A stretch of DNA of 64,000 bases from Catajapyx aquilonaris. Its lineage: Eukaryota. The DNA lies in assembly GCA_000934665.2 (NCBI GenBank), contig KZ538048.1, positions 62,001 through 126,000 on the forward strand, written 5' to 3'. This document shows, piece after piece, positions 18,644 through 60,317 of the stretch. The position numbers and the translations under genes were made by a program. The notes beneath the pieces were generated by a model. That model was not told where the DNA came from, made no database searches, and worked only from the letters and a program-made list of their open reading frames with translations. The number at the start of each line of letters is the position of its first letter. Positions within the stretch are counted from its first letter, which is position 1.

Positions 18644-20689
18644 ATTCTTGTGGTCTACAGTCGAGGGTCGATAATCTATACTCTCCTATTGAGTGTAGAC
18701 CTTCATACCGGTTTATCTATTACAACTTGTTCCAGTTTGGACTAACATCACCTTGAACATCACCTTTGTTGCCACTGTTAATATGTCATTTGATTAGTAA
18801 TGACAACATTGGTGACAAAGTCTGAACTTGACATTCTCTCTCTCTACAGTACAAAAATACATGTTAAGCGGTATTAAAAACATCATGACCAGTACTTGAT
18901 ATGCATGGAATTGGCAGCAAAGGCAGAGAGGCCAATTGACCAAGTCCAAGTGTTACACTCCCACACATGACATATTGGGGCTATACCTAGTTTGATGATA
19001 ACGAAGGCCTAACAGAGGGGTCTTTATGAATAGTGCAGTAACTTATCTCTGCATGAATTAGGCAACATTGATGACATCGCTTCACCCTGAACCCCTTTTG
19101 GGATAAACAAAAGCTATCCATACCCTCCCAGTCCCGCCCCCAAATAGAAAATTCAGACAATTTATAGTACCCCTGCTGCCCGCGAGCATCATCGTTACCA
19201 TCCTTCCAGAACATGCTCATGCTACAGTACACAGTACATGCTTGAATTAAGGGAGATGCCTACCCTGCAGGGCGTGAAACTTGTAAGTTGATAGGCTGTG
19301 GCTCCTGCGACGGTATATCCGACATCCGTCAGTCCATGTCAGTTGTGCGATATTGTACCATACGCGGAGGTTTACTAAACATGAGGCAAGGTTGCTTTTC
19401 AAGTCACAGTGCTCTCTATAGTTAAGGAAAAGAAATATTTTCTCCTACATTATACAGCCATTTTGGAATAGCCTCTAGCGCCCTCCACCGTATAGAGGCC
19501 GTATTAGTCTGAGAAGTAGAAATTATCTATTGCGGTCAAAATATTATTGCGCGCCATAAAACCGCTAGGATAGCGTACCAAATTTAAATCTAGATTTATG
19601 CTACAGTTCTAATGTTTAAACGAATTAGTCCGCACATTAGTCCTGTTTGTGAGTCTGTCAGCCATGTTGGACCACAATACAAAGCACGGATACAAAGTTT
19701 GGATCGATTCCGGATAATTAAACGGTGTGACTGATTTTTTCACACCAAATTAAATCAGTAAGGTATAAACTAAGCACATTTTATTAAAAATTGTGCGATT
19801 TAAGTTCTGTACACTTTTTAAGTGTTGCCAACAGGTGTCAAGGGCTGTGACTCCTTCTTGACCCCTACACGTGCCGCCTCAGAGCAGCCTCCGTCCCTCC
19901 AAGCCTGGATAAAGCTGAGACACGGTAGGCCTAATGATATTACTCTAGCCCCGCATTGTTATTTTTTTGGCTTAGCTTTTTACCAGCAGTACAACTTCAA
20001 ACGGCAGCGTCGCCTTGGGTCTCTTTGTCTACTGCAGCCCCGTGTTTTTACCGGACATTTGCGTCAGGCGAAAGGCTAGTGGGTATATTACTGTGTCCTC
20101 TTGGGATAGAGCCTGCAAGAAGTGGTGTTGCCTCTATTTATAGCTACAGGGAGCTACAGGGCTATGTGTAGTTGGTGGACAACCCCAGCGGCCGGTAAGG
20201 TCAGAGTGTCTTGCCCGACCTTGCCTGTGAGTAACTTTCCTATAAGCCAATACCAACTAACTTAATAATACTGCAATATGCTACATGTACTATATCTCTC
20301 AAAAACATAGAGATGATTTTGCATTGGATTCCAGTGCAGGTTGCACTTGAGTCAAATGCAAAATCGTCTGTTTTTGAGCGATATAGTACTGTACATAAAT
20401 GGCCTAATTGTTTCAGTCTAATGGGCGGAATTTGACGCACGTGTCTTCCTGGAAATGACTGAGCCCGCTTGAGGGTACACTCATGTAGATTGCACAGGTC
20501 TGGAGCACAACAACCTATTTTCAGCGAAGATATCGCGAAATAAGTAGAGTAAACACATGTTCCTCCATGTAATAGGATATTAATATTAATACATTGTATA
20601 AGAAGTGATATCATCGATATGCATTTATGGGCGCAGTACCGTATTAAATATACAGTATGCAAGCAATAGGAGGGCGGGGTCCTGTAAGG

Positions 20690-27333: not shown

Positions 27334-30300
27334 TACACGCAGGAACCCCCTAAGATTTTTGTGCAACAGGAATGCCAACCAGAAAGTTGAGGCATGTCCA
27401 TACCAGTGGTAATATATTTTTTTGGGTAGGACCATCCCCCAGCATGTATGTCTTGACTCTGTAGGTTGTCCCCAAATTGCGGCAGTTATGACTTTTTATA
27501 TCCTGGGCCAAACACTGTTACTGGACTTTTTTTGAGGCCTTTGATGGCCTGGAGAGCGGTCAGAAGAGCGATAAAGTCGCAGTTCCGCAGGGACGACCGA
27601 GATCAAGGATGAGAGCAATCTTCATAGATGCCACGCGTACTTTGGCCCCTTGGCTTTGTCTAGAGATTATACGAGTTCATTCAAGGAGACGTCCCCACAG
27701 ACCAGACTTTTTATCAAGCCTGTGACTGAACAAATGCTATCGATTGGAAATGGCTGGTGATTTTATAGCAGGTGCTGGTGGTGTTTTTAAAATCCGAGTT
27801 ATTTGTTCTGTTAGCAGCATGTACACGCATAGGGTACTCATTGCGGCATTAGAAATTTTATTCTCTATTTGGCCGCCAACCAAATATTCCAATGTGAAGC
27901 AAATCAAGTGTTTAGACAATGGCTGCAGGTCAATGTTTTTTAGCTGAAAAGAAAAATGAACTGGGGCCAAAATTCAAATGACGGATTACAAATCATAAAG
28001 TTATACTGGCAGACAGTTTAGTAATGGCCCGTAATAAGGCATAAATAATTTACCGCTCGTTATTCAGGCAGCCATCAGTATCAGGCCTGATGGGATCACT
28101 TGAATGTTGAAACAGTTTTATGCAGCAAGTGCCGGTGTAATATATATTCCCAGTTACAAGGCACATATGGAGGCAGCTTTCGAATCCCCACGAGCACATA
28201 TTTTTTTTGCTACTGCCCTAGGAGAAATTTACGCTTCTCAGAACAATGAAATGGAACGATTAAAAATAGGACTCGCGAGACAAACGTCCCCATTGGCCAA
28301 CACATCATCTTTCCTTCCCAGTGCCACCTGGTGCTATTGGAAACTTGCGGATGTGCCAATGCGAAAGTCTGGGGGATGTGCGGGGTGGTCTGGACGTGGA
28401 AAACGGGTTAAAAATGCACACAGCGGCCAGGGTTTACACCCGCAGGCCCAGTTACACTAGGAAGCTTGCCAAGATATCGTGGCCCACGGATCCCCGTCAT
28501 CGCCCCTTTTGCTTCAAACAAAATGACCTTTGCCAAATTCATGCAAACTGGGGTGTGGCTGGAGGTAGTAAAGGTTGCTGCACGTTAGTTCTACGCTCAG
28601 CCATGTGTGTATGATGAGATGGCACGGATTCAGAAGGTGTTAGTATAGCATTGCCCTTCAGGCTATTCTGTTTATCCTTAACACATCTGCAACATGTCCT
28701 TATTGCTTGTTCTACACGAGAAGTACTTACAGGCGAATAGTTCAAGCTACAAGAGCCTGGTACAACATGAGAATTGGTAGGAAATGGTGCGTGATCATTT
28801 GGCTAGATTTCAGTTGGTGATTCTGAAATACAGGGTCATAAAGCTGTTCTGATGGGGATTATCATAGAGTCGGATTCTAGCATGCATTCCGGAAATTGTA
28901 CATTTTCATTAGGTATAGGTCTGAAGTATAGGTCTCAAATAACTAAGCGGAGATGTCAGAAACAAAATGATTCGTATCGTTGCAATGGGTAGAATTGAAC
29001 TGATGAGATATAGCTTTTGCTGAAAGACCGCATGTCTTCTTGGGCTTAGGTCTTTTCGAATTTATAAGACAAATTGGGCTGGTTGACTTTGACGATTCCA
29101 GCTTCGTAATGGAGATAATCGACTGTCAGTTAGCGTTCCGTCATCCTATGTGAATGTTAAGGATATTTCCTATCATTCACTTGGATATCACAAAAGGAAA
29201 ATTGACGTGCGGTTATCTAGGTAACGAAGCCGGAATCGCCAATGTCAGCTGGATCAATTTCGGCTTAGTATCCAAGGAACTTGGCTGGAGAGGACGTGCG
29301 TACCTTTCCACGATTCTGTATAGTGTGTATACAAAATAAGGGCACGTTGTCAAACTATAATACTTGGTTCATTTGTGATATTTATTATTTGATGAGGAGT
29401 TTTGATCGTATATTTTGTAGTGTTGGCAAAAAAGTTGAACACCATACGGTATGTAATTTAGTGAAGTGAATATTATTTTGAAATCATTATGAGTTCGTCG
29501 CCTGACGTTCACGTGGTATAGTGACACCTATGCTTCTAGTATAATTATGAATATTCTCTGACACCTTCATGTTGATACAAGTATTTTGTTGCAAAAAAGT
29601 TACAAAAAACCAATAGGTAAGAACGGTACTGTTTCAATCACCTTCATGTATCGTGTGAAATGTTCAATCAATTTGAAAATTAATTTCCAACACAATAATT
29701 GAATCAGTGCGCCCTTTTTGGTACAGTATCAATGCTTCGATTACAATTATTTAACTTTTCAAGCTGCAATGGGTGGTTGACAGGTTCTTTGGGATAAAAA
29801 TAATAGCACGTGGAAAACAAAAATGCTACTACACACTGTTAGTACCGTAGACAGCACAATTTCAGTATAAATTACTGTAGTTTCAGTCCCTTTTCCTGCA
29901 ACATAGTAGGAGAATCCCTTGTACTATGCAAAATTGTTGATTCAATTACTTACTTGATATGTATACAGTATATCAAAGGTGTTAATGTTTCGAATTTTTG
30001 ATTTTTCCACTTCCAATGGCAAAAGGACTAAGAATGCCGAATGTGCTGTTTTTGTAGCGCAAATATTAGATTAGCACATTAATAAATATTACATTATGTT
30101 TTTGCAGTATAATTCAATATAAAATGCGCTTTGTGGTAGGCTAAACCTTTAAGGGATATACCATATATCCTGCAGTGCAATATGTTTTAAATTATAAACA
30201 TGCTTGTCATTGAATAATAGAATTCAACATAAAAATCTAGAATGATATGTCATTGATATATTGCCATTCACATAAAACATATGGAACTTTTTAATCCCAT

Positions 30301-30700: not shown

Positions 30701-33017
30701 AGCAAACCAATAGTAGATTTATTTTTCAGGTAATCTCAAGTAGCCTACTGCTATTGGGGAAGAGAAACTGTAAAAATATATCACTAGAAATAATGTGCTT
30801 TAGCCTACTATACATTAATATTTGCAATGCAGAACGATCAGAGTCACGATCGAGTATTTCGATATCGTTCAGACAACCTCAATATTGTTGTAGCAGAAAA
30901 CATAATCAACTATAGAACTGCATTACACAATGCAATGCCTAATTCAAATTTTTATCAGATCCTTTTAGTCCAACGTTTGTATATTATATGAATACACAAG
31001 AACACTCGATTTGCTGAACGATTAGAGTCACACCAAACCAAGTCTTCTTGTGTATTCATAAGTGAGTTGATTCGCCTCATTTGCATATCTTGAAAACCCA
31101 GCATAATTTTTTCCCAAATTCCTGAATAGTTTAAAATTCCTAAAAATTGAAAACAGCACCCGACACAAACACTTATCATCAACTCTCGTGACTGTAATGC
31201 CCACCAACAAAGCTCTATGTTTAAATAATGCTCAAGAAGCAAAGCGCTAATAATGAACCATGACACGGAACTGTCGAGGCCTAGACACCCCTTCAAACAA
31301 AGTATTGATCCCACAAGTCAAAAAGTTGCGACTCTTTTGGAGTGCAACAAGCACCATAACCACATCATACAACTGACAAGAACAAGCTTTGTTAGCTCCA
31401 TGTTAGAAAAAAAAGAAAAGAACAGGAGTCGCATAACTCCGTTGGCAAATTTTCAACTCGGAACGAATTCCTCCTAGCAGGTACTATTAGTAAAGTTTGT
31501 TAACCGGAGGTCTGGGGGCACAACTGCGAATAATGATTTGAGGGCCCACCTCGACCAAGTTCATTTGGTAAGCGTACGTCGTTCCCCACGTCAACAGAAC
31601 AAAAAAGAGGAGAAATTGACAGTCACGAGGTCTGCCAACTTTTTCTGCACTTCCAACCCCCCCCCCCCCTACACACACACACCCTACTATAGATTTGAGT
31701 CAGGAGTGTAGGGGAAGGTTCAAACTTATTTGACAGCAGGTACTTTTTTTTCTCCCATAGGTTCTTCCTATGGCAAAAGTAGCACCTGGAGGAAAAAAGA
31801 GGAGGGATTGTTGTATCCTCTTTGTAAAGTAGACTCAGGACAGATCGTGATGGCGGGTTCTCTGTTCTCTTGTCACGTTCGGGACCTCCAATTGAGAGGG
31901 AACGGCTCTCTAATAGTTTAATTCAATGCGGGTTCGGCACACCCGCCGGTGTTGCATAATTGCCGCCAATGACTGTACGATGTGGGTTCTCTCTCATTTT
32001 TTTTTGACTAATTTTTCGCACTACGGGTACCCAGAGCGGTACAGTGTATGCAGTGCTGCAGAGCAATAACGGATGAAATGATGACAACTAAATCAATGCA
32101 CTTTGTAGGCATTTCAAAGTTTATCTCCCTGACTGCCTGCACTATACTCGTAGTTGGGGATACAATGGGAACCGAATGTAATGATGACATTGATGAAGCA
32201 TAAAATGCGCACGTTTATTCGCCAGTTGGCAATAAACATGAAAGCCTATTGCACTGTAATTTTCGTGATTGACAATTGAGTAACGCGGTGGGATTATTAA
32301 TGTTGTGCTTCCATGTTGTCTAGCTCGAGTCGTAAACACGCGTCTTTGAAGAACATTCTGGTATCTCAAAGTGAAGCTATCATTCATTCTATATTAAGAC
32401 GTCTTCAAGTTCAGTCCTGATCCACGCATCCGCTTTGTGAAAAATACTTCAATATCTACTACCCCCAGAATTAGCTTCAACCTTTTAAGGGCATATGGGT
32501 GACTTTGTTCGTTCTGCCTTCTGGACAGGAAATGCTATATGATATATGCGGTACCGGTATTACAAAACCAAGTACCATATGTGTGGACCCAGTTGAGGTC
32601 TGGTTCTTTCTGGAGGGCAAAACGGTGATGGGTACTTTTTGCATACTTATGGTTTCGCGGTTTGGTTATGAAATAGTTTTTAGTCTAAAATAGAATACGC
32701 GTGATGGCTAGAAAAAAAAAAAAAAGCCGTTGGGGAGAGTTTTGGGCCAGTGAATCATTGATGATGTAGGATGTTCGAGGAACGAGTTGGAAGGGGAAAA
32801 AGCGCTGAGGCATGATTGTGGATTTGAATTAATAATACGCCTGTGTAGCTCTAGTCTCACGACGACATTGACGGGTTGTAAAGTCATCTGATAAAAAGGG
32901 ATGCTGCCTCGTGAAAAATTATTGCATCTTGACGTGAAACAAGTTCGTGTCATGTTAAGTAAAGAATAACAGACATTTAAAAAACGTTTAACTCGTAATA
33001 ACAATAATGGCAGGTGA

Positions 33018-41363: not shown

Positions 41364-42740
41364 CGTCCTTGCCGCACTTGGCCCCCTGTAGACACTACAA
41401 GTAGAACTAACTGCCCCCCACTTTTACCCCTCTTGTCCACTCTTGGGAATACCACAATCTGCGCGCCTCTGAGTGTTGCACAAGCGCCTCCCGACGGAGC
41501 CTGATGGAAACCAAGCCGGCCATTTCCAACCGCGGGTCACATGTGATGGTCAAGTAGAGGGCGTTTTGCATATATCAAACGCGGTTTTTTTGATGATGAA
41601 AATATAGGGGAGGGTCATACTGCGTGACTGATGGCGGTTCAGTTTTTTTTAGTAAAAAGCTGATGGGGAAAACGTTTTGGAGTAAAAATGATCAATCATG
41701 GGTTTTTGCCCCTTTTTGGCTTCTAGTCTCTGGTCGGATTGCGTGTTTTGAGGTAATGGCTTAGTCACGGAAGGGAACGTTTCTGGTAATAACGGAGTTG
41801 TTGTGAATGAAGTCAGTGGATAGATTTAAATTTGAATTTGTCATTAGTCGAGGGCATGAGGTGAAACGAGTGTAAAACGTTTTAGATTTCATGTGGGGAA
41901 TATATTCGTGGTGAAGTATTGGATATTGGGGCAGTAAAATGAGCCATAGTTTGCAGAAGAGTCGATCAGTTCGACAAACATTTTCCGTACTTGACAGGTG
42001 TCAGAAAGGCACTGAAAATTATGAGTCCGGACAAATAAAGTTCCGTAATGGGCATCCAGTTTCTGCTGTTGGAAGGATCCGCTTAGGCATGTATCACGGT
42101 AGTTCATAATCGTTTAGGCCTGGATTAATATTATAGGGATATAATTAATATAGACTGTACTTAGGGAGGGCACCTTGCACTGGATAATTATGAAACCGAC
42201 AAGGAAAGTTTTACCATGTGCAAGTCTCAAGTATTATTCAAACTTAGTAGTTAATTACTCCATCCTCAGTAATGAATAACCCTAAAGGTTTGCAGAAAGC
42301 TTATTTATTGTAGGTTTAAAACAGGGGATTGGAGGGTTCGCATTAAAAATTTGACCGTTTAAAAATATTGCATACTTATCTGGACATTTTGCATCCATCT
42401 GCAACGTACAAATCCTAGGTACAAATATAAATTATTGTACCCAATTTTGGTTTCCTGACATGAATGGGTTGTGCACAGAGATGAACAAAAACGAGTGAAG
42501 GCTGTCCCCGTGGTGACGTTGTATGAAATGTGGGGCAATAGCCAAACCCCACTCCCCACATGGTTCTGCTATATTGCTAACCTTCTCCACTTGCATCCCT
42601 GCACCATCATAATGATCCAAATACGGAATCCCATAATATTATGCTACATGTCATAGAGAGGAAAGGATAAATAAGTACCGGTATTATAGAAACATCGTAA
42701 AATTATATCGAAATACTCATATTTATTTGGGAAAGTGAAG

Positions 42741-43092
42741 GGGAGGCGGAGTGGTGCTGCGGTAACGTGCGCGCCCACGGATGTTAAGGTCCCGGGTTCG
42801 ATCCCAGCCCGGGGACACCCCCTTCATCTCGTGCAGAGTTCATTGGGTCACCTCTGGCTTCGTCTCGGGTGGTATTTCCTACAGACTAAACCACCCGGGG
42901 GAGTTCACTAAAAATGGCCACATAAAGACATTGCACTGCACCTTGCACATCCCCTCCTGTCATCCTGCCCGTGGGCCCGGGCGCTTCAATAATTAGGTTC
43001 CAAATATGTACATCGTACAAAATAAAGGTCCGTGCTATAGCCGAGAAGGCCAAGCACTACCCGGATATTATTATTATAATATTATTATTATT
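42741..43092 (+). mobile_element. tRNA-derived SINE (family 1)
   Basis: A box TGGTGCTGCGG (~42752), B box GGTTCGATCCC (~42795), 3' stem-loop, (TTA)n tail. TSD ATTTGGGAAAGTGAAG at 42725-42740 and 43441-43456. Confidence 0.88.
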
Positions 43093-43102
43093 ATTTGGGA
43101 AA

Positions 43103-43391
43103 CCGAAGCAGTAGTGGTGTAGTGGTATGGTGTCCGACTGCTAATCGGGAGGTCCTGGGTTCGAATCCCGGAGGCCGGCGACCCTGACCTTGGTTTTCTG
43201 TGGTTTCCCATGGTCCTTGCAGGATAATTCCGGGGTCGTTACCGTAATATAGGCCACAGCCGCCTCCTTCCTTCCCTTTCCCTGCTTCATTCCGGTGATG
43301 AGAAAAATAGTAAAAAATGGAAGAGTTCCAGACAAAAAATTGGGAGAAATCCCCCCCTAGGAAAGCCCGTAGGCTGATAATGGGGTATCAA

Positions 43392-43440
<49 letters not shown>
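43103..43440 (+). mobile_element. tRNA-derived SINE (family 2)
   Basis: A box TGGTGTAGTGG, anticodon-like arm, B box GGTTCGAATCC, body GGTTTTCTGTGGTTTCCC...GGCCACAGCCGCCTCCTTCC, perfect (TTA)n tail. TSD ATTTGGGAAA at 43093-43102 and 43441-43450. Confidence 0.9.
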
Positions 43441-43443
<3 letters not shown>

Positions 43444-43700
43444 TGGGAAAGTGAAGCAACAATAACAATAACAAGTTGTCTCTGTTCCCCCAGTACACCG
43501 AATCATTAATATCACACTAAAGTTAAATCTTTTGTAAGCACAGCTTTTGCAAAGAGTGTAATCACACAGGATCGGCTTGGCACATTGTAACGTTTCCTGG
43601 GAATTAAAATTTCAACAATCGCTCAAAATATATTGTCAAGTACACAGATAATTCTGCCTTTTGATTTTCCATCTCAAAATTAAATTACAAAAATTTTTTA

Positions 43701-44119
43701 ATGTCTTTTCCTGAGGGCAATAACTCAGAGTCCGAGTTAAGTTTCTCCAATTCCACGTTTCCTATATCGCAATGGTTTAAAAGCAATGTGACAGCACGGT
43801 ATATGTCTACTACATATAATTATTATTTATTTAAAAAATCAGCCCATGGGGATGTGGACGAGGATGGTGCTGCAACGTCTCTTGAACATCAGACATCGGT
43901 CAGTGTTTGGTGCAACAGCATCATTAGTTCCTACAAGCAACAACGCCTGCCATTGGCCTATCGTTGGCCCTTCGACTTCGGTGGTCAGCAGCAGGGTCAA
44001 GGGACTGACACATCCCTGATTGACCTGGTCACCGAGGGAGGCAGCGGACATAATGTTCATTCCATGCAAGCTCTGAACGACAGGATGAGCATCACAGCAT
44101 CCAGGATGTTGGAGGAGGT

Positions 44120-44151
<32 letters not shown>

Positions 44152-44213
44152 ACTGGAGGAAAAAACATTCACTCCGTGGAAGCGCCTCGCCATTGAGAAA
44201 ATTACTAAATTAA
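43701..44213 (+). CDS. Uncharacterised 170-aa ORF; possible orphan gene or pseudogene
   Basis: ATG-initiated ORF covering a GC-rich, exon-like island (43843-44200) in AT-rich flanks. A CAG/CAA run reads as poly-Q in another frame. No homology recognised. Confidence 0.3.
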
Positions 44214-44316
44214 CGAGCTATTGGAATTAAATTCCGGCAGCATTGCAACAATAACATCATGCGATTTTATTAAAAATCCAGGGATTGAATGAACAATATG
44301 AAAATTAGCTAGTTTA

Positions 44317-44463
44317 GGGCCGTTTTCTCGAACAGTGGTTCAAATGTAAACCCGGTTCAAAGCCGGTTTAAACCCTTGACAACGGCCTAACAACAATCAA
44401 ATCAGGGATTAAACTGGCTTTCAACCCGGTTTATATTTGAACCACTGTTCGAGAAAACTACCC
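44317..44463. mobile_element. PIF/Harbinger-type MITE
   Basis: ~60-bp TIRs (GGGCCGTTTTCTCGAACAGTGGTTCAAAT... / ...ATTTGAACCACTGTTCGAGAAAACTACCC) with TTA on both sides (44314-44316, 44464-44466). Confidence 0.85.
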
Positions 44464-44581
44464 TTAATCATCACGAGAGAATGTGAATAAAGATGATCCT
44501 ATTTACCCAATGCCTGCGTATTAAGATGATTAAATGTATTATTACAGAATGTACTGATAATATCTTAATTTTTTCATATCA

Positions 44582-44828
44582 TGTTGTTGACTTGACGTTT
44601 GCTAGGTGACGCGACGTTGCCATATTTGCCACGTAGAATGAGGCTGTATAGCAGTGTGTCAACAGTGTATTGCACTTTGACTCCAGTATGACTCAGGTAC
44701 ACATTTTATCATAGCATACAATGCGTACCTGAGGCTTACTGGAGTGTTGGCACACTGCTATACAGCGTAATTCTACGTGGCAAATATGGCAACGTCACGT
44801 CACCTAGCAAACGCCAAATCAACAACAC
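44582..44828. repeat. ~250-bp imperfect palindrome immediately upstream of the orphan gene
   Basis: TGTTGTTGACTTGACGTTTGCTAGGTGACGCGACGTTGCCATATTTGCCACGTAGAAT... pairs with ...ATTCTACGTGGCAAATATGGCAACGTCACGTCACCTAGCAAACGCCAAATCAACAACA. The inner arms ACTCCAGTA..CTCAGGTAC.CATT / AATG.GTACCTGAG..TACTGGAGT also pair. Confidence 0.9.
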
Positions 44829-44881
44829 ACGGAAAAGAAATTAATTTTGAGAATACAGAACAAATTTGGCTCCAGGTCCTA

Positions 44882-45589
44882 ATGTCTAAATTGGTCAAAA
44901 TCACCCGTACCACTCCTCGCAAAAAGAGTGGCAAGACAATCCGCAAAAGGAGTCGCAAGACAATTCGCAAAAAAAGTCGCAAAATCATCCGGAACAAGAC
45001 GCTGGGCAAAAGCAGCCGCAAACTTCCAGGCAAAAGCAGCCGCAAAGTTCCAGGCAAAGGAACTACCAAAAAGACCATCAAAACAGCTGACACACTTGTA
45101 GACGACATTCCTGACTATCTCTCCAAGGTAAGACTTTCCAATCCCCTAATATCGCCCTCTGTTATTGCTGTCGGTTGTCCGGAGTGGGTTGCATTCAGAT
45201 AAGAAATCTTAATATTTGTATCATATCTCACTCTACAGGAGGAGGAAGAAAAAAACAAGATATCAACTGAGTTTAATCCACTTCTGCGTAAGATACACAT
45301 CCGACCTTTGGAGGAATACCAGCAGTTCTACCAAAATATGCTGGACACCTACAGCCAGAACCTCGCAGCCTACAAGAAAGGAGGGATCTTCGCCTACATC
45401 GGCTTCCCTGGCTATGACAAAGAGGAGACCAAAATGTCTGAGGACAACGCTGAAGAAAAATTCCACAACATTTTTCGAACCCAGCATTGGGCCAAGAGGA
45501 CCCTGAGCGGACTTCTCATTGGGATGTCATCAGATGATGCTGAGGATGCTGAGGATGCTGAGGATGGAGTTTCCACCAAGCCCAACTGA
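44882..45589 (+). CDS. Two-exon orphan gene, 198 aa: Lys/Arg-rich repeat N-terminus, diverged HMG-box-like region, acidic tail (candidate sperm or chromatin basic protein)
   Basis: join(44882-45127,45239-45589). Donor AAG|GTAAGA, acceptor CTCTACAG, phase 0, frame preserved. TGA at 45587-45589 and AATAAA at 45668. 24-nt coding tandem repeats. Confidence 0.75.
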
Positions 45590-46056
45590 AGTGTGAGGAA
45601 GATGCGGAGAATCTGTTAGAGAATACCTTTCTCGCGGATCCAGCGGATGAAACGTCTATAAGCTCTTAATAAATACATATAACTCGGCAAAAAACCTCGT
45701 TTCATTCACTTTTTTCTAGGACCGCAGGACTAGAAAGCCACTAGATTCGATTATTTTTTCTAGTAGATACATTTGTGAGGTTACTCCCATGTGAGATATC
45801 TCTGTATTATTTAGCAATAAACCATAACCCAATTGAATTTCAGCATAACGATGCAGGCATGATGTTTCAGTAATGTTATATATTATTAACACTTGTGCCC
45901 TGTTTATATTGTATACTGTTCATATATATTGTATGGCATGTAGCAGCGGGATTTCATGTTTGGATATGGTGGGGTATAGGGATGGGAATGGGGATGGTTA
46001 AGTTTTGATTCATGTTGAATAGGCTAATATAGAATCGAACTATAGGCTACAGTATA

Positions 46057-46300
46057 CAGGGTGAACTGACCAGTCAGACCTGTACCCGTGGCTCAATTGA
46101 CACCAGAGGATCATGTTATGTAGATGAGTCATTATGTCTAAACTGAGATCAAAGTACCAACAGTGCAAAAAGAACTGTCCCAGTCATCCTGACGTGTGGG
46201 CTGGCCGCTCGACACACACCATGTAAGTTACATGGTGTGTGTCGAGCGGGCAGCACACACATCAGGATGACTGGGACAATTCTTTTTGAACTGATGATAC
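46057..46300. mobile_element. Fold-back (palindromic) element, probably a Tc1/mariner-type MITE missing its outer right arm
   Basis: 73-bp arms 46154-46226 and 46228-46300 around a 1-nt loop. TA|CAGGGTGA terminus at 46057 resembles the termini of the MITE at 57688. Confidence 0.6.
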
Positions 46301-46749
46301 AAGTACAAATAGGTACAAAGTATCCTGGGAGGTATGGAAACCTCCAGCCCCTGAAATCGCATTATCACCGGTCATAATAGCAGTGATCCCTTATGGCTAC
46401 TAGCATGTCACACACTGACACGCAATAGGGAGGGCCGAAGGGTACCCTGATGTCCGACCCAGGGTCACTGAAGGACGGTTTGAGTTGATTCCGACTTCCG
46501 AATGCGGCCTATACCCGCGAAGGGAGCCACCAGTATATTTCTGTGGGGGCGCACCAGCGCCAAATTTCCCTCCTGGCGGATACTTTTATATTAAAGTACC
46601 GTCAACACAGAGCTAGGCTGGAAGAATCAGGGGCTGCGTGATACCCACCTGAAACGATACGATACCCATGGCCGTAGCCAGGATGGTTATGGGGNGGGGG
46701 GGGGAAGTGTCCAGGTGCAAAAATGTGGACCTTTCCCCCTTTACTCTTA

Positions 46750-47001
46750 AGGCCTCTACACAAATTCGGCGGAAGGCTGAGCGGTCGGAAAACGTGCGAT
46801 TGGGGGGCGCGGAATGTGAGTGGTGGCAATTCACAAATTCAAGCGGTGGCGCTGCGGGCGGAAAGTGGTGCGTTGGGAACCGCTCAAGTCCACCTGGATG
46901 GACTTGTGAGATTGCCACCGCTCAGTTCCGCGCCCCAAACCACGCCCCCAAACGCACTCTTGCCGCCCGCTCAGCCTTCCGCCGAATTTGTGTAGCGGCC
47001 T
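46750..47001. mobile_element. PIF/Harbinger-type MITE nested in the 46667-47362 element
   Basis: TIRs AGGCCTCTACACAAATTCGGCGGAAGGCTGAGCGG / CCGCTCAGCCTTCCGCCGAATTTGTGTAGCGGCCT; TTA TSD at 46747-46749 and 47002-47004. Confidence 0.88.
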
Positions 47002-47165
47002 TTAGAATGTCCTTCAAAATGTAGTTCTTACTGTGGTACTGTACGTATACGTGTCGGAGCCCAGAACGATACGAAGCGGACGAAACAGTGGCGCACCCAG
47101 AAAGTTCCTTAAGCGGTTGGGGNNNGGGTTCAAGGTTACAAGCTTAGGTGAATGAAATTATGTTC

Positions 47166-47173
47166 CTTCTCTC

Positions 47174-47235
<62 letters not shown>
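47166..47235. repeat. (CT)n microsatellite
   Basis: Direct reading of the sequence. Confidence 0.95.
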
Positions 47236-47539
47236 ATTTTGCGCCCCCTAAATGTTGGCGCACGGGGCTTGCTGGACTCTGCGTGTGTGGACCTTTTTAG
47301 GGTGGTCTCCAAAAAGAGGGGGGTACTTGTACCCACCTTTACCCCCCCTGGCTACGGCCATGATACCCGATACTTGGAGGAGTATTCGTCAATTATTTAA
47401 TTTTTTGTCCTCTTCCCTAGATTTTCCGCCCCCGTAGAGCGGCGCCCCGTGCGGATGCACGGGTCGAACTGGCCTAGGGCTGCCCCTGCTTGCTAACAAT
47501 GCTGTCTATTACAGCACAAAGAATTCGGAACGCAACATT

Positions 47540-47541
<2 letters not shown>

Positions 47542-47617
<76 letters not shown>

Positions 47618-47778
47618 TTCATCTTCACGGCGCCGTTACCCAAACAGGTATGGGGTTGCCAGCGAATATTAAGGAGGAGGTTCTTAATATCCTCGTATGA
47701 CCAAAGACATATACAAAAAAAACCAACATCTGAAGCCTGGTCGGGTACTCGCAGATAATTGGGGGGGGGGGGGGNTGT
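47542..47778 (-). mobile_element. Short retroposon insertion with (TGA)n tail (RTE-clade-style tail)
   Basis: (TCA)n at 47541-47620 on the plus strand. 13-bp TSD AACGCAACATTTT at 47529-47541 and 47779-47791. Confidence 0.8.
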
Positions 47779-50700
47779 AACGCAACATTTTAATCCAAGA
47801 AAATATACATTTCTTATAAGTTATGACACGTTTGTTTGCCTCAGATCCTTAGATTAATCGATATGGGCAAGAGGAACGCGAGATGGACATGTTAATACGA
47901 TATTTCCTTCACAATATGGGATTGTGATTTTTGCATAAAAACTTGGAACTCTTGAAAACCAGAACACCAGCAGTAACGTCATTATCATGTCACTTGTTGA
48001 ATCTACCCTGGCTCTATTAGTCTATTGATCAGTTTTCACAATCAATCTCGACTTATACTTGTACATCGAGAAAAAAAATAAGCGTGGGATTTACTGCGTT
48101 AACTCTTTCTTTGCTATCCTGGCAAACCTGCTCCCCGGTAAACATGACAGTACTGCAGGGTTGCTCTTAAAAGGCGTAAATCGAACAGGGTTCTTACAAT
48201 ACAGAAAGCTCAGAGCACTGAATACATCCGCTTTATTAATACTAGGATGGGAGATTATAAGAGGATCTTATGTATTCTCGGTTATTTCATGGAGATTGTA
48301 GACTTTTCGCACAAATATTCATATTATATATGCTGTAAATATACTGTAGGCGAATATGATTCCCTAAACTAGGGTTACCGATTATTATGATTATTACCTG
48401 AAATTGACCAGAACTCTGAGCGGGTTGACTTTGAGTAATACCGTACCGTTTCAATGCTTCGAAACACAAGTGTCGGATTCTTAAATTCTGCTTCGATATA
48501 GGAGAGTGATTTTTGCAAAACCGTGAAAGGCTATGAGTGATTCTTTTCTATGATGGTGTTAAGTTTCTGTGGCCATGCAGTACATCAAAATACTAATGGA
48601 CGAATGTAACCATTCTGTAATAAATCACGTGGACCACTGGCTGGAAGACAGTAATGAGCCCTGATTATGTTTATTTTTATTTCCCTTCTACGTGAAGGTG
48701 AGCTACTACTCACTTTTCTTCATTTTCATTCAAATATAATTATGCAGGCTTTAAAAAGCAATCTACACACAGTAAAACAGTATATTACTGACAAAACAAT
48801 ACCTCCGGGCAGCAAGAGTATATCTGTTTCACTCAGCACCACGGTTGGAATCACTTCATCATTCTGTATATAAGAATAACACTGTATAAGCCATCCCACT
48901 GGCCGCAGGACACATGAATATCACTAGTTCTCCTCAAAACTCTCTCATTTTGGTATTATTCAGAAAAATTATGAGCCTCAGATGATTATAATCCCACCGA
49001 ATATTAAGCATAATAAGGAACGGCTTAGACTGACAATGCAGGTTCATCCAATAGACATGCCACTTTTATAAGCTTAGTTAGACATCAATGGGAATTAACG
49101 CGGCATAAAATCCTAATGCGATATTTTCCATTTGTTTGTTACTACCTACCACACAAGAGATGCTAAACAGAAGAGAATAATCGATGAGGAAAATCTGAGT
49201 GTAAGTACCGTTGCTTTTACCAGCTTATTCTTTGCTTGCTATGTATGTGTTGTGGCAACAACGGCTTGGATCGATCGCGAAGTAATTACAATTTCCCCGC
49301 TGAGAAGTGGTGCGTAGATGGCGCATTTAGCACCTACCGGATGTAATTGCAAACTTCTATTTATTTTCAAGCCCAAACCAACACGAGAGAATTTCGTTGG
49401 AGACAACGAATCCTTTGACTATTCCTTGTTTGCACCACAATCCAATCTACTCTCCGGATTATTGCTACTTTTTTTTTGAATGCATTTAGCATGTCCGTCC
49501 TTGCTTGTGACACACCCACTTAGCCTTGACGCATCACACTGCTGATGTGTGAACAATCGTCTATTCTTGGCAACAATTACCAAACGCATTGCACCAGTTG
49601 ACATTACATCAATTGAAAAACCCACACTTTCTCCACTAGTCATAGGGAAGTGTCGATGACCGTCGCTCTATTTAAAAACTTCCTGGCGTCATGGTCATCC
49701 CCATAAACCCTTTTGAAAATTCCCAGCCGGCAAGGTTGCTCACCTGTAAACCTGGCCCATGTCCCCCTCCACCCACACCAAGTGAGTCATACCAGCTGGA
49801 ACAGTTTCACCTGGTCCTTTTATTCCCAGTAGTCTGTATATATCCCCCTTCTTCCTCTCACCATGGCTGTGACGCCTTCCCTTGCTAACTAAACTGGGCT
49901 AATAGTCCCTGCTCCTAATTAGAGAGCTCTCGCTTTGCCCTCAATTTGCCAGACACCAGGACGAGATATCAGCACCGACACACCAGAGTTGTCCGATGAC
50001 TCCTTAGATAGTGCAAGTAATTGCAGGATCGTTCATTAGATCAGAGACGCACGTAGCAGGCGTTATATCACAGGGGGTTCGAGTTGAATTTTTATGCCAA
50101 ATTGTTTGTTCTTTGATTGCATACCTGATTTAATTGGTACCAATAGAAGGTACAAAAAGGCAGAGGACAGAATGTACGGGAGGTATAATTCAAGTGTTAG
50201 TGCGACCTGGTTGTTATTCATCGTCAGGTGAATGCGTGTTGCTAGTGTAACAGCCCATAAAACCACTCCTTAGTCAATAGTCACGTTTGTCGCATTAGGA
50301 ATGTCACCCTTCCAAGCGTGATGTGCGTGTTTGCTATATCTAGAAATTTTACTGTAGATGAACACGTATTCCGGTATTGTTTACTCTGTCTGGATATGAC
50401 AAAAGTGTTCCTAGTCAATTTTATTAATTATCCTTAGAAGCAGATCTTTAGAATCTATAATTATACTAAATCGCAGTTTATGGTATCATTTTTGACAGAA
50501 GGTCTTTGGGGCTATTATGCCCATAACATTGCCGCCAGCTACGTTACTGTAGAGTTGCATACGTGAGTGGTGATGCTGGAGACAGTTCCTCATTGTTATT
50601 GCATTGAAAGGAAGCATAATTCATAATGATGTTCACTGCATACTCGTAGTAGGCTATATGTGTCGCAAAGGTCAGCTCAGATTCGAGTTCACTCCTGTCT

Positions 50701-57440: not shown

Positions 57441-57687
57441 GTGAGCCCTTAGAATATTCGCTTTCAAGGGTACGGTACCACTTCATTATGTTTTAACGGT
57501 CGTGAATCCCCCGTTAATTAGGGATTAATTAAGTGAACAAGTGGGTGTGCGCGTGAGAAATCCGCACGAAGCATTTCTCAACTTGGGGAACATGCTTAAA
57601 ATTTTCCACACGGCCAAGAAAAGGGATTCCACCGAATGTATTGCGTGAGCATGTCGAAAGGAAAATGCCTTACCCATCGTATATATA

Positions 57688-57840
57688 GAGGGTGATTCTA
57701 AAGGTTGTGCACAAACTTAAAATGTGTATAGAGGGGTCGTAATAGGAACTCGTGTTCTCCCAGTCTATTCCAAAGTTGGTTTATTCCCACCCCTATATAT
57801 ACACTCCTTAAGTTTGCGCACAACCTTTTGAATAACTCTG
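57688..57840. mobile_element. Tc1/mariner-type MITE
   Basis: ~50-bp imperfect TIRs GAGGGTGATTCTAAAGGTTGTGCACAAACTTAA / TTAAGTTTGCGCACAACCTTTTGAATAACTCTG, flanked by TA. Confidence 0.8.
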
Positions 57841-60151
57841 TATACTGCTCACTGAGCTGTTGCTCAGCATAATAATATTGTGTGTAAATGAAGCCAACAA
57901 GATGCATCAACAGGAGCTAAGAAAAAAGTACTCCATTCGAAGGACTTTGATCTCTGATTCTGCCTTATGGGTGTAGAGTTCACGACCCCAACAGTTGGCA
58001 CTTGCACTGCCGCCAGAACGACACTTAGACCTGTAATAGTAGTCGAGAGTGCAGCAAAGGCCACTTTTTGAGATGTAATTGGATCGCCTTTCCTGGACTT
58101 CTTTTTTATGCCCATACAATCACTATTTTATGGGCGAGGCTTTTACTGTGCCACTGGACCTGTGTAAGCACCGCCACCTTCTCAGACCCAGTTTGGCCAC
58201 TGCTTCACACACAGCATAACAATAAGTGTAAAATATTTTCTCCGTCGAAACCCATCCTCCCCTTCTTAGCTGACTATCAGTTAGAGTGGCAGTGGGCGGA
58301 TATATTTGTAGTGTTTGGTAGGGAAGTGAGGATACAAAAAAAAATATGGGGGGGTTGTCATGATGTGGATTTACAGGTGCGGGTTGGCCCTTACATTCAT
58401 TTACCTTTCCGCATCGGTAACAAACTACGCCCAACCTTGTCCGGAGCCCGGACTCTTAATGGACGGGCCACAACACACCCCTTCAGACTGGATTCTTTAG
58501 AGTTTATCGAGTAGAAGGAGAGGCTGAGGGGTAGAGAAATGCCACACGTGCCCGGCCGTCCAAAAGGGGATGCAAATGTCACTCGATATGCTGGAAAAAC
58601 GACACCCACGATGTGTAGAAAACCTGTTTACCTTTGTCAGGTGCAGTTTGACTGCAGAAGGTTGAACGTGCGAATGGTCCAGTGTACGGATTGTGTTAGG
58701 AGCCAGCACGTTTCTAAGGTATTCTTAAAATAGGCTATATGACTGTTTGTTTTTACCGGGCCTTCTTTTTAAAAATATTTGTATGAATGTTTATGCCAGG
58801 CCTCTTTGGGCAGGGTAAGGGTTCACGGAACTCCCGGTTCGTTAGGGTGACTGAGCTTTTGTGATGGGTGAATTAGCACGTTGGACTTTAGGATTGTTTA
58901 AAAAAAAAATTGATTGTGAACAGGAACCTCTAGAGTTTGAAGTTTTTGTTCCGAAGTCAGCTTATAGAGTAGTCCCAAGAGAGGCGAGAGAAAAAGGTGA
59001 AGGCAATTCGTCCTCGCTAGTGCTACCCCACCTTAGATTCAATCCTTAACCTACTGTACCTGGCCTTTTAGGGAGTGGTGTCCCAGAAAGGCGGGCGGGC
59101 TTATTTGTTTGCCCCTTTTTTATATACTTTTTGGTAAATACAGCTACTCACCAGTCGAAGGACGAGCAGCAATGTTTATTAATCGCGCCGTTTTTTTGCG
59201 GTATTATATTATGTCAACTTTCCTTTCGGTAAAAATTCCGTCTGGAAACATATTTAGCCATATCCTCATGTTGTAATTTGCATTTGTATTCCGGATGTCT
59301 GCCTAGTGTGCCTGTGTGCGGCCTTGAAGGCCGTGAGAGAGACGAAGGAGTAACTTCCACACTTGCCATCTAACTTTTGCAGAACCATCCTGGGTAGTAA
59401 AAAACATAGTCACGCCATATCATATGATGCAGCAGTTCACTGTTCACTCTCTCTGTGCCAGTTGTGATTGGGTTGAGCAACCATGACTGCCCCCCCCCCC
59501 CCTTTTTTTTTCTCTGCAAACCCTGATGTCGAACAGAAGCCCAATAAAGCCTAATAATAGGCGATACAGTATTATGGTGCGTGTCTATGTGGCCTTCAGT
59601 AAAAGTCCGATACCTGTCGCTATTGGGTAAAACGGGTGCATGACAAGCCATGCAGCCATCAAGATACTCTTCCATCTACAAACATGTGTAAGGTTCATTT
59701 GCATATTTATGAGAACCTTTTGGCAGGTACACAACCTCAGCTGTGTATAACATCACTGACCTCAAGACTATCCTGTACTGTATTAGCAAGTGAAAGTGAA
59801 CTGTGCATTTCTTATCCTATGACAGCATGTGACCAATATGCCTCTATTGTTCACCAGATTGTATAAGTTCCAGGGGAAAAAGGTTGTCACTTTCAAAATG
59901 AGATGGCTACATCTGTTATTTTAGAGAATTTGTAAAATAATTTGTACCGTACATTTTTGGCATGTTACACATTATTGTATCTTAGAATCGTTATAGCTGA
60001 GGCTGACTACAGGTCCATCTTTAAATAGCTGGTATATTGCAAATAACACCCTCCGAAAAAGGGGGGGGGGGTGGCCATGGCTTGCGTGGGAAGACTGCCA
60101 AAAACGACAATACTGAAACCTAACCATCTGACTTAATTTTCAGGAGGCAAT

Positions 60152-60317
60152 ATGGCTGAGGTAATTAGCAGCGACATGGAGGAAGCCTCTGTCAGGGAGC
60201 GCTTAAAAGTGACCGAAGCTGGAAACGCCCTGAAGGTCCAAACCAGTCATCCCCATTTGGTCAGCATGGGCAGTGGACGACTCAGCACTGCGGTCACAAT
60301 TCATCCGCTACAAGAAG
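60152..60317 (+). CDS. PHLDB: Pleckstrin homology-like domain family B (PHLDB/LL5) first coding exon, leading into the N-terminal FHA domain
   Basis: LKVTEAGNALKVQTSHPHLVSMGSGRLSTAVTIHPLQEG matches the PHLDB1 N-terminus as I recall it (LKVQTDKPHLVSLGSGRLSTAITLLPLEEG). Acceptor TTTTCAG at 60143 and phase-1 donor AAG|GTAAGC. The next exon was not found in the window. Confidence 0.9.

Follow-up and report, generated by a model that had tools for sequence, protein, structure and literature searches.

A spliced reading frame with a strongly basic N-terminus is located at positions 44882 to 45673 of the 64,000-nucleotide stretch of Catajapyx aquilonaris contig KZ538048.1 analyzed here (the window). 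It raises the questions of whether this locus is a gene and whether its product is, as a preliminary description had proposed, a lineage-specific sperm chromatin protein derived from an HMG box. The best explanation, to which we give a probability of about 0.4, is a lineage-specific host gene encoding a chromatin protein of the protamine-like or transition type, which would stand outside the HMG-box family, an assignment made by analogy. Of the original proposal, the part describing a basic, probably DNA-condensing orphan protein appears reasonable, whereas membership in the HMG-box family was not supported by the profile tests described below.

Gene model and splice sites

Coding exon 1 (44882..45127, forward strand; 246 nt, 82 codons, aa 1-82) starts at ATG 44882 and ends in phase 0. 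It is followed by a phase-0 GT-AG intron of 111 nt (45128..45238) with the borders AAG/GTAAGA ... CTCTACAG/G and by coding exon 2 (45239..45589, forward strand), which encodes aa 83-198 and a TGA stop codon. An AATAAA hexamer (45668..45673, forward strand) is found 79 nt past the stop, followed by a T-rich tract. The spliced open reading frame, the canonical phase-0 intron, the stop and the AATAAA are thus all present as first described. The product translated from ATG 44882 has 198 aa. A second in-frame ATG at position 44786 could add 32 aa (230 aa in total), but it falls in one arm of a fold-back element. Splicing to the tandem acceptors at 45241 or 45244 would shorten the product to 197 or 196 aa, each step (45238/45241/45244) corresponding to one Glu. 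The intron contains one in-frame stop (45200-45202), and its codon score is strongly non-coding. It spans 37 codons, and its retention would yield a product of 106 aa that comprises just the basic domain, while the use of the AG at 45203 as acceptor would give an almost purely basic peptide of 84 aa.

The splice sites were scored with untrained matrices, with which the donor ranked 8th among 7123 GT and the acceptor 59th among 7312 AG dinucleotides on both strands of the whole window. The candidate is the sole two-exon model of at least 190 aa above either threshold pair in the window, and such a model was obtained in 1 of 60 Markov-simulated 64-kb windows. The synonymous-codon score, which was trained on a small set of about 450 codons from two neighbouring genes, was best for the proposed frame among all six in both exons (+0.157 bits per codon in exon 1, +0.037 in exon 2) and fell sharply to -0.43 bits per codon in the intron. 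The 134 open segments serving as the null had a mean of -0.164 with a standard deviation of 0.11 bits per codon, and both candidate exons lie inside the range of the eight true exons of the neighbouring gene scored by leave-one-out (-0.107 to +0.201). Exon 2 by itself is modest, about 1.8 standard deviations above the null, and in exon 1 the +2 frame scores nearly as well (+0.135), yet it contains three stops. The GC content is 0.46-0.48 in the exons versus 0.28-0.36 in the flanks. An acid-free 67-mer with more than 13 Lys or Arg residues is found in none of the other 243 of the 244 six-frame segments of at least 67 aa in the window. Tandem repeats such as those in exon 1 favour open frames, which counts against reading the locus as a gene, and no TATA- or Inr-like match was detected in 44300-44882. 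Because the splice sites are strong, the model is the only one of its kind in the window and codon use is host-like, the sequence suggests that the candidate is probably a real gene.

Protein composition and charge

The whole protein has a pI of 9.9, a net charge of +17, a combined Lys and Arg content of 22% and no Cys, with 30 Lys versus 14 Arg residues. Its charge is bipartite: a basic N-terminus built from 24-nt tandem duplications faces an acidic part (aa 71-198, pI about 4.6) with one predicted amphipathic helix. Residues 1-69 (7.9 kDa) are acid-free and basic, with 29 Lys or Arg residues and a pI of about 12; a recount of the first 67 aa gave 19 Lys, 10 Arg and neither Asp nor Glu, in agreement with the earlier count. 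Three in-frame 24-nt repeats (44918..44989, forward strand) encode 8-aa units such as RKRSRKTI, and two others (45005..45052, forward strand) encode GKSSRKxP units. The same 69 residues hold putative phosphorylation sites, one of the CDK type (TPRK) and 13 of the form [ST]x[KR]. The hydrophobic moment reaches 0.53 in aa 17-42 and is low (0.31) in the first 18 residues. Eight acidic residues are found in the linker comprising aa 70-86 and eight in aa 179-198. A 9-nt repeat in 3.4 copies (45536..45566, forward strand) encodes a short Asp-Ala-Glu tract, which had been taken for the end of the protein; in fact seven further residues follow.

Homology searches and a role outside sperm chromatin

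Remote homology searches were run one exon at a time. Only sub-threshold matches were obtained in Pfam, PHROGs and NCBIfam, and the best E value among PDB sequences was 0.54. In a search of 5.8 billion proteins covering lengths of 63-203 aa, none of 15 candidates reached E<=1, and exon 2 as the query matched none of 1.84 billion representatives, an outcome to be expected of fast-evolving sperm proteins. None of the 85 pattern matches in viral contigs or of the 596 in metagenome contigs was confirmed. In the ESM Atlas, exon 2 was linked to HSP90 fragments (0.85, low recognition) and exon 1 gave no usable match. No paralogue of the gene is present within the window. Arthropod proteins are sparse in these libraries, and an Ig exon from the gene next to the candidate likewise matched nothing. 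Since an ordinary Ig exon is missed, the orphan status of the candidate is weaker than it appears.

The alternative that fares best, although we consider it somewhat unlikely, is a real orphan gene whose basic tail has another role. The product might bind RNA or DNA in the nucleus or nucleolus of somatic or early germ cells, or might be a Lys-rich sperm-tail or mitochondrial protein with the acid-free N-terminus as a targeting signal. The evidence for a gene is identical under this reading, the overall charge is moderate and the acidic half is large, and the N-terminus is Ser/Thr-rich with the elevated hydrophobic moment in aa 17-42. Basic low-complexity tails are also found in nucleolar, ribosomal and mitochondrial proteins. 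However, a housekeeping nucleolar or ribosomal protein would be conserved, so relatives would be expected in the searches, and the low hydrophobic moment of the first 18 residues argues against a mitochondrial role. Typical mitochondrial presequences are unlike a Lys-rich tail built from repeats. In favor of this alternative, a paper on insect sperm proteins cautions that a basic composition is not sufficient to recognize a sperm nuclear protein (PMC12216123).

Fold-back elements and neighbourhood

A fold-back (MITE-like) element of 246 nt (44582..44827; 83-nt arms, 93% complementary, z -21.5) has its 3' edge 54 nt before ATG 44882 and contains the in-frame ATG 44786. An unrelated element is located upstream (44313..44467) and two are located downstream (46154..46300 and 46745..47006), while the remaining fold-backs of the window are found at 20277-20397, 29071-29260, 30987-31060 and 57684-57844. 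Half of the eight elements in the window are thus crowded around the gene in a span of 2.9 kb (scan P about 0.02). These four are mutually unrelated and have neither a second copy in the window nor a clear target-site duplication. No repeats of at least 30 nt bracket the gene, and a Pfam search of 12 further open frames, which mostly lie within 5 kb, revealed no transposase.

In flies, transposons prefer promoters and open chromatin (PMC10018349). By this analogy, the cluster fits a promoter that would be open and active in the germ line. Damage to the promoter is equally possible: the stable hairpin 54 nt before the ATG, together with the lack of a TATA or Inr match, suggests that the promoter may be damaged.

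These observations bear on the possibility that the locus does not work, being either a young proto-gene or chance frame in mobile-element debris or a gene silenced by fold-back insertion. We regard this as unlikely. The hairpin and the lack of a recognisable core promoter are consistent with it, as are the lack of a homologue or paralogue in the libraries and the window and the pLDDT of 45.7 for exon 2 in a single-sequence AlphaFold model. In addition, one similar model in 60 simulated windows is to be read against a genome with more than 1000 scanned windows. On the other hand, the top-ranking donor, the good acceptor, the polyA signal, the codon bias in both exons and the GC-rich exons all speak against a non-working locus, as does the lack of bracketing terminal repeats and of a transposase in the 12 open frames.

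The neighbouring gene on the minus strand (39300-36718) encodes three Ig domains and one FN3 domain. Eight of its exons were joined in frame, and a further exon of 37 nt (41363-41327, minus strand) likely completes its signal peptide. The layout of this gene is, we assume, of the Klingon/Wrapper type. The two genes are arranged head to head, with the candidate 3.5 kb from the start codon of the Ig gene. Elsewhere in the window, an exon at 60145-60317 (forward strand, around 60152) has a strong donor and resembles the start of a PHLDB-family protein; no PHLDB match was found in Pfam. An open reading frame of 170 aa (43701-44213, forward strand) has no family match. Its GC-rich part (43844-44230; GC content 0.51 versus 0.32 in the flanks) has a near-neutral codon score in this frame and a short basic tail at its end. 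The frame may represent a further orphan exon or the debris of a mobile element. Two stretches on the forward strand (42740-42830 and 43110-43200) were recognized by eye as degenerate tRNA-like sequences with A- and B-box-like motifs. They adjoin (TTA)n tails and a 34-nt unit that is present twice, and are probably SINE remnants. An ARAGORN scan detected no tRNA, and Rfam gave no match in 42000-48000.

Comparison with the HMG box

The HMG profile comprised 228 boxes at no more than 65% identity, obtained from 391 domains in 120 proteins. Its 13 seeds were all PF00505, with 13 of 24 loci used and the others being non-HMG, redundant, truncated or unparsed. It was built from HMGB-type boxes of protists and giant viruses and contains no fly sperm boxes. 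As controls, 1415 chunks of 138 aa were taken from 664 unrelated viral proteins. The source proteins include many giant-virus and protist proteins with three to five tandem HMG boxes (L003/L022 on an IMGVR contig of 504,798 bp, L007/L014, L016, P0003-P0122), some of which also carry topoisomerase families (P0063, P0115, P0117).

With this profile, hmmsearch of the spliced protein recovered helix 3 only, at 0.5 bits and an E of 0.057 for one sequence, a domain score equalled by 82 of the 1415 unrelated chunks. Pfam searches of each exon separately found no HMG family, and hhalign against the HMG profile gave a probability of 0.7%. The full-box alignment scored -4.8 bits, a value also reached by 19 of 150 shuffles, whereas 40 held-out true boxes scored 50-159 bits. 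Columns 1, 8, 11, 16, 35 and 39 of the box hold a gap or residues absent from the profile. The core aromatics are replaced in the best register by Asp70 (for Tyr8), a gap or Val73 (for Phe11) and Leu98 (for Trp39), a substitution that the preliminary description had itself pointed out; none of the 228 real boxes lacks all three. The N-terminal Pro-Lys-Arg-Pro strand and Arg16 are missing as well: columns 1, 4 and 16 are occupied by Thr62, Thr65 and Pro77, whose frequencies there in the profile are 0, 0.005 and 0. The by-eye alignment to HMGB had nevertheless hit upon the register that the profile itself selects; it is the match over the full box that failed. With Pro1, Tyr8, Phe11, Arg16 and Trp39 replaced or gapped, the sequence does not support the "cryptic HMG box" as membership in the HMG-box family.

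Distant descent from an HMGB protein, in which the basic tail would have taken over DNA binding and the aromatic core would have been lost, is a separate matter and appears improbable to us. It draws on the three HMG helix-3 tyrosines (Tyr50, Tyr61 and Tyr68), which are matched by Tyr109, Tyr120 and Tyr127 in the proposed Y-x10-Y-x6-Y spacing. This spacing occurs in 57 of the 228 boxes, in 0.6% of shuffles and in 14 of the 1415 chunks. Helix 3 scored 10.0 bits, a value reached by 49 of 3000 shuffles and 15 of the 1415 chunks, with a true-box median of 35.1. A weak likeness to helices 2 and 3 extends over aa 89-128 (45257..45376, forward strand), where the ungapped score of 3.6 bits was equalled or exceeded in 9 of 3000 shuffles and in 4 of the 1415 chunks. 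However, when 58 sub-profiles are allowed for, 81 of the 1415 unrelated chunks do equally well, and no true box among the 228 scores below 24.8 bits on this part. Moreover, Pro96 falls within the would-be helix 2, where Pro occurs in 4 of 228 boxes. The predicted helix at aa 106-128 shows a Leu/Tyr heptad (positions 106, 113, 120 and 127, together with 109 and 116), and the likeness to HMG helices 2 and 3 can be explained by this plain Tyr heptad, which is possible in any amphipathic helix.

In a variant of this descent, two tandem box remains would precede the acidic tail, namely helices 2-3 at aa 89-128 and a helix 1-2 core at aa 134-166 (45392..45490, forward strand). In the latter register, Ala134, Tyr135, Phe138 and Trp166 are spaced exactly like HMG Ala7, Tyr8, Phe11 and Trp39. 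The corresponding pattern A[YF]xx[FYW]x27W, here at aa 134, is found in 101 of the 228 boxes and, among the controls, in 3 of 3000 shuffles and in 1 of the 1415 chunks. A linker as short as the required 7 residues is seen in 8 of 314 real tandem-box junctions. However, this second register was found post hoc and scores poorly against the profile: Gly-Phe-Pro-Gly stands in place of helix 1, there is no helix 3, and columns 10, 12, 31, 35, 42 and 50 hold residues absent from the profile. A separate upstream exon carrying HMG helix 1 was also considered and rejected, as 2266 six-frame segments gave no significant match, no donor above 2.7 bits is present in 41400-44882 and the AG directly before the ATG is poor.

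The boxes of fly sperm proteins, as far as the source covers them, also speak against such a descent. In the CG14835 family, the helix-1 Phe and Trp are kept by eye in 35 of the 36 rows shown in part 1 of 13 of supplement 3 (PMC9917458). These fast-evolving boxes lose the helix-3 tyrosines and retain Phe and Trp, the opposite of the candidate.

Predicted structure and other folds

Exon 2 was folded without an HMG alignment, as that would be circular, and the would-be helix 1, which is encoded by exon 1, falls outside the model. Residues 83-137 modeled from the single sequence reached a pLDDT of 71.1, and the one helix predicted with confidence spans aa 106-128; a second helix at aa 150-175 is weakly predicted (pLDDT <50). 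The predicted helices fall where HMG helices 2 and 3 would be expected, a point in favor of HMG descent. Foldseek searches with the exon-2 models, which lack the would-be helix 1, returned a best E of 1.2 and no match, and the best VIA Z scores of 4.0 and 3.6 for models of the same extent correspond to background. The HMG box is absent among the best 50 VIA matches listed for either model.

Other chromatin folds were considered and rejected. A by-eye likeness to the linker-histone winged helix (aa 113-177) had a glocal score of -18.0 bits, which 161 of 200 shuffles equalled; without the wing, the score was -11.2 bits, equalled by 139 of 200 shuffles, and true domains score 97-163 bits. The H1 profile comprised 49 non-redundant domains out of 99 usable ones in 115 metagenome loci. 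No PF00538-type winged helix was matched on exon 2 with this profile, which represents canonical H1, so that a very divergent domain could escape it. The would-be long helix of a histone fold, another by-eye likeness, is hydrophilic, and no Pfam histone match was obtained. A true Arg-rich protamine is rejected given the 30 Lys versus 14 Arg residues, the lack of Cys and the length of 198 aa; only a cleaved peptide comprising aa 1-69 would come near that definition.

Comparison with known sperm and chromatin proteins

Fly sperm nuclear basic proteins have fewer than 200 aa and mostly a pI above 10 (PMC9917458); the pI exceeds 10 in 12 of the 15 proteins in Table 1 of that paper and does not in the other three. 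The candidate, with 198 aa (230 aa from ATG 44786), conforms to the size of about 200 aa or less, and its pI is 9.9 for the whole protein and 12 for aa 1-70, as computed with a calculator that differs from that of the paper. True protamines have Arg clusters, often Cys, a pI of 12 or more and about 30-106 aa, while the basic proteins of insect sperm are in many cases made as precursors that contain Lys and from which less charged parts are trimmed off (PMC12216123).

The candidate resembles Atlas, an orphan transition protein of Drosophila, in being about 20 kDa, basic, without an HMG box and lineage-limited (PMC8445463). Atlas differs in its pI of 10.7 as compared with 9.9 here, and the likeness is one of description that implies no sequence relationship. 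For Atlas, testis expression, nuclear localisation and sterility upon loss are proven (PMC8445463). As an essential orphan that is HMG-less, it provides a precedent for a protein of the candidate's type. Mst77F, which is listed with one HMG box (PMC9917458), is likewise about 200 aa long; one of its halves binds DNA and the other, proposed to multimerise, is removed by proteolysis (PMC5133442). However, the DNA-binding half of Mst77F is C-terminal and the protein has ten cysteines, whereas the basic half of the candidate is N-terminal and the candidate has none. ProtA/B, Prtl99C, Tpl94D, tHMG and CG14835 share with the candidate the size, a basic extension and a likely fast evolution (PMC9917458). 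In contrast to the candidate, which has no helix-1 Phe and Trp in the proposed box, the boxes of these Drosophila sperm proteins are recognisable.

The H1-family protamine-like proteins (PL-I, PL1 and PL2 of Nasonia, and the spider precursors) also combine a Lys/Arg/Ser-rich repetitive tail with a small helical part. The wasp and spider sperm proteins are H1-derived, and precursor processing is common in this family (PMC13148410, PMC11607694, PMC4584325). Unlike the candidate, these proteins have a winged-helix domain, and their basic stretch is usually C-terminal. In the processed precursors described in the cited papers, the N-terminus is cut away from a basic C-terminal part; the layout of the candidate is reversed. 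By title or abstract, a narrow literature search revealed no insect precursor of a protamine in which the C-terminal part is acidic. Proteins of the HMGB1 type have in common with the candidate a helix with three spaced tyrosines and acidic residues near the C-terminus, but the candidate lacks the helix-1 motif and the core aromatics, and its acidic tract stems from a 9-nt repeat. The acidic tail of HMGB1 consists of roughly 30 pure Asp/Glu residues and is far longer than the 8 acidic residues within 20 aa found here.

A protamine-like or transition-type protein as the best explanation

Taken together, a protamine-like or transition-type chromatin protein remains our preferred, though tentative, reading. 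A role in sperm is suggested by composition and by analogy. The Lys/Arg/Ser/Thr-rich N-terminus would enter the nucleus via import signals, and this tail would neutralise and condense DNA electrostatically without sequence specificity. Phosphorylation at many Ser and Thr residues, among them those of the TPRK and [ST]x[KR] sites, may tune the tail. The acidic C-terminal half could shield the basic tail until deposition, and the helix with the Tyr heptad may allow copies of the protein to associate, a division of roles similar to that in Mst77F with the order of the halves inverted. By analogy, the spermatid would be the most likely tissue. The content of Lys and Arg in the whole protein of just 22%, the net charge of +17, the excess of Lys over Arg and the lack of Cys count against this reading, as does the pI of 9.9 where 12 of the 15 fly proteins lie above 10.

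A more specific scheme seems very improbable, namely a protamine-like precursor of reversed polarity, in which a 69-residue Lys-rich N-terminal condensing peptide that arose by recent tandem duplication would be released after deposition by cleavage at aa 70-86 from an acidic C-terminal chaperone half, this half possibly being a tandem HMG-box and acidic-tail relic that would have lost its DNA-bending core after the basic tail took over.

Significance

Outside Drosophila, hardly any sperm nuclear basic proteins of arthropods have been annotated, and homology cannot find them (PMC12216123). Orphan basic genes of the testis type are an already known kind. The candidate is plausible as a protamine-like or transition protein, outside proven HMG-box or H1 membership. 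If the reading of the C-terminal half as an HMG relic were true, this would mean that HMGB gave rise to a sperm protamine by an independent path in an animal other than a fly. Likewise, if the N-terminal peptide is released by processing, the known precursor designs would be extended. As a clean orphan candidate, the gene would be useful for a catalogue of arthropod sperm basic proteins.
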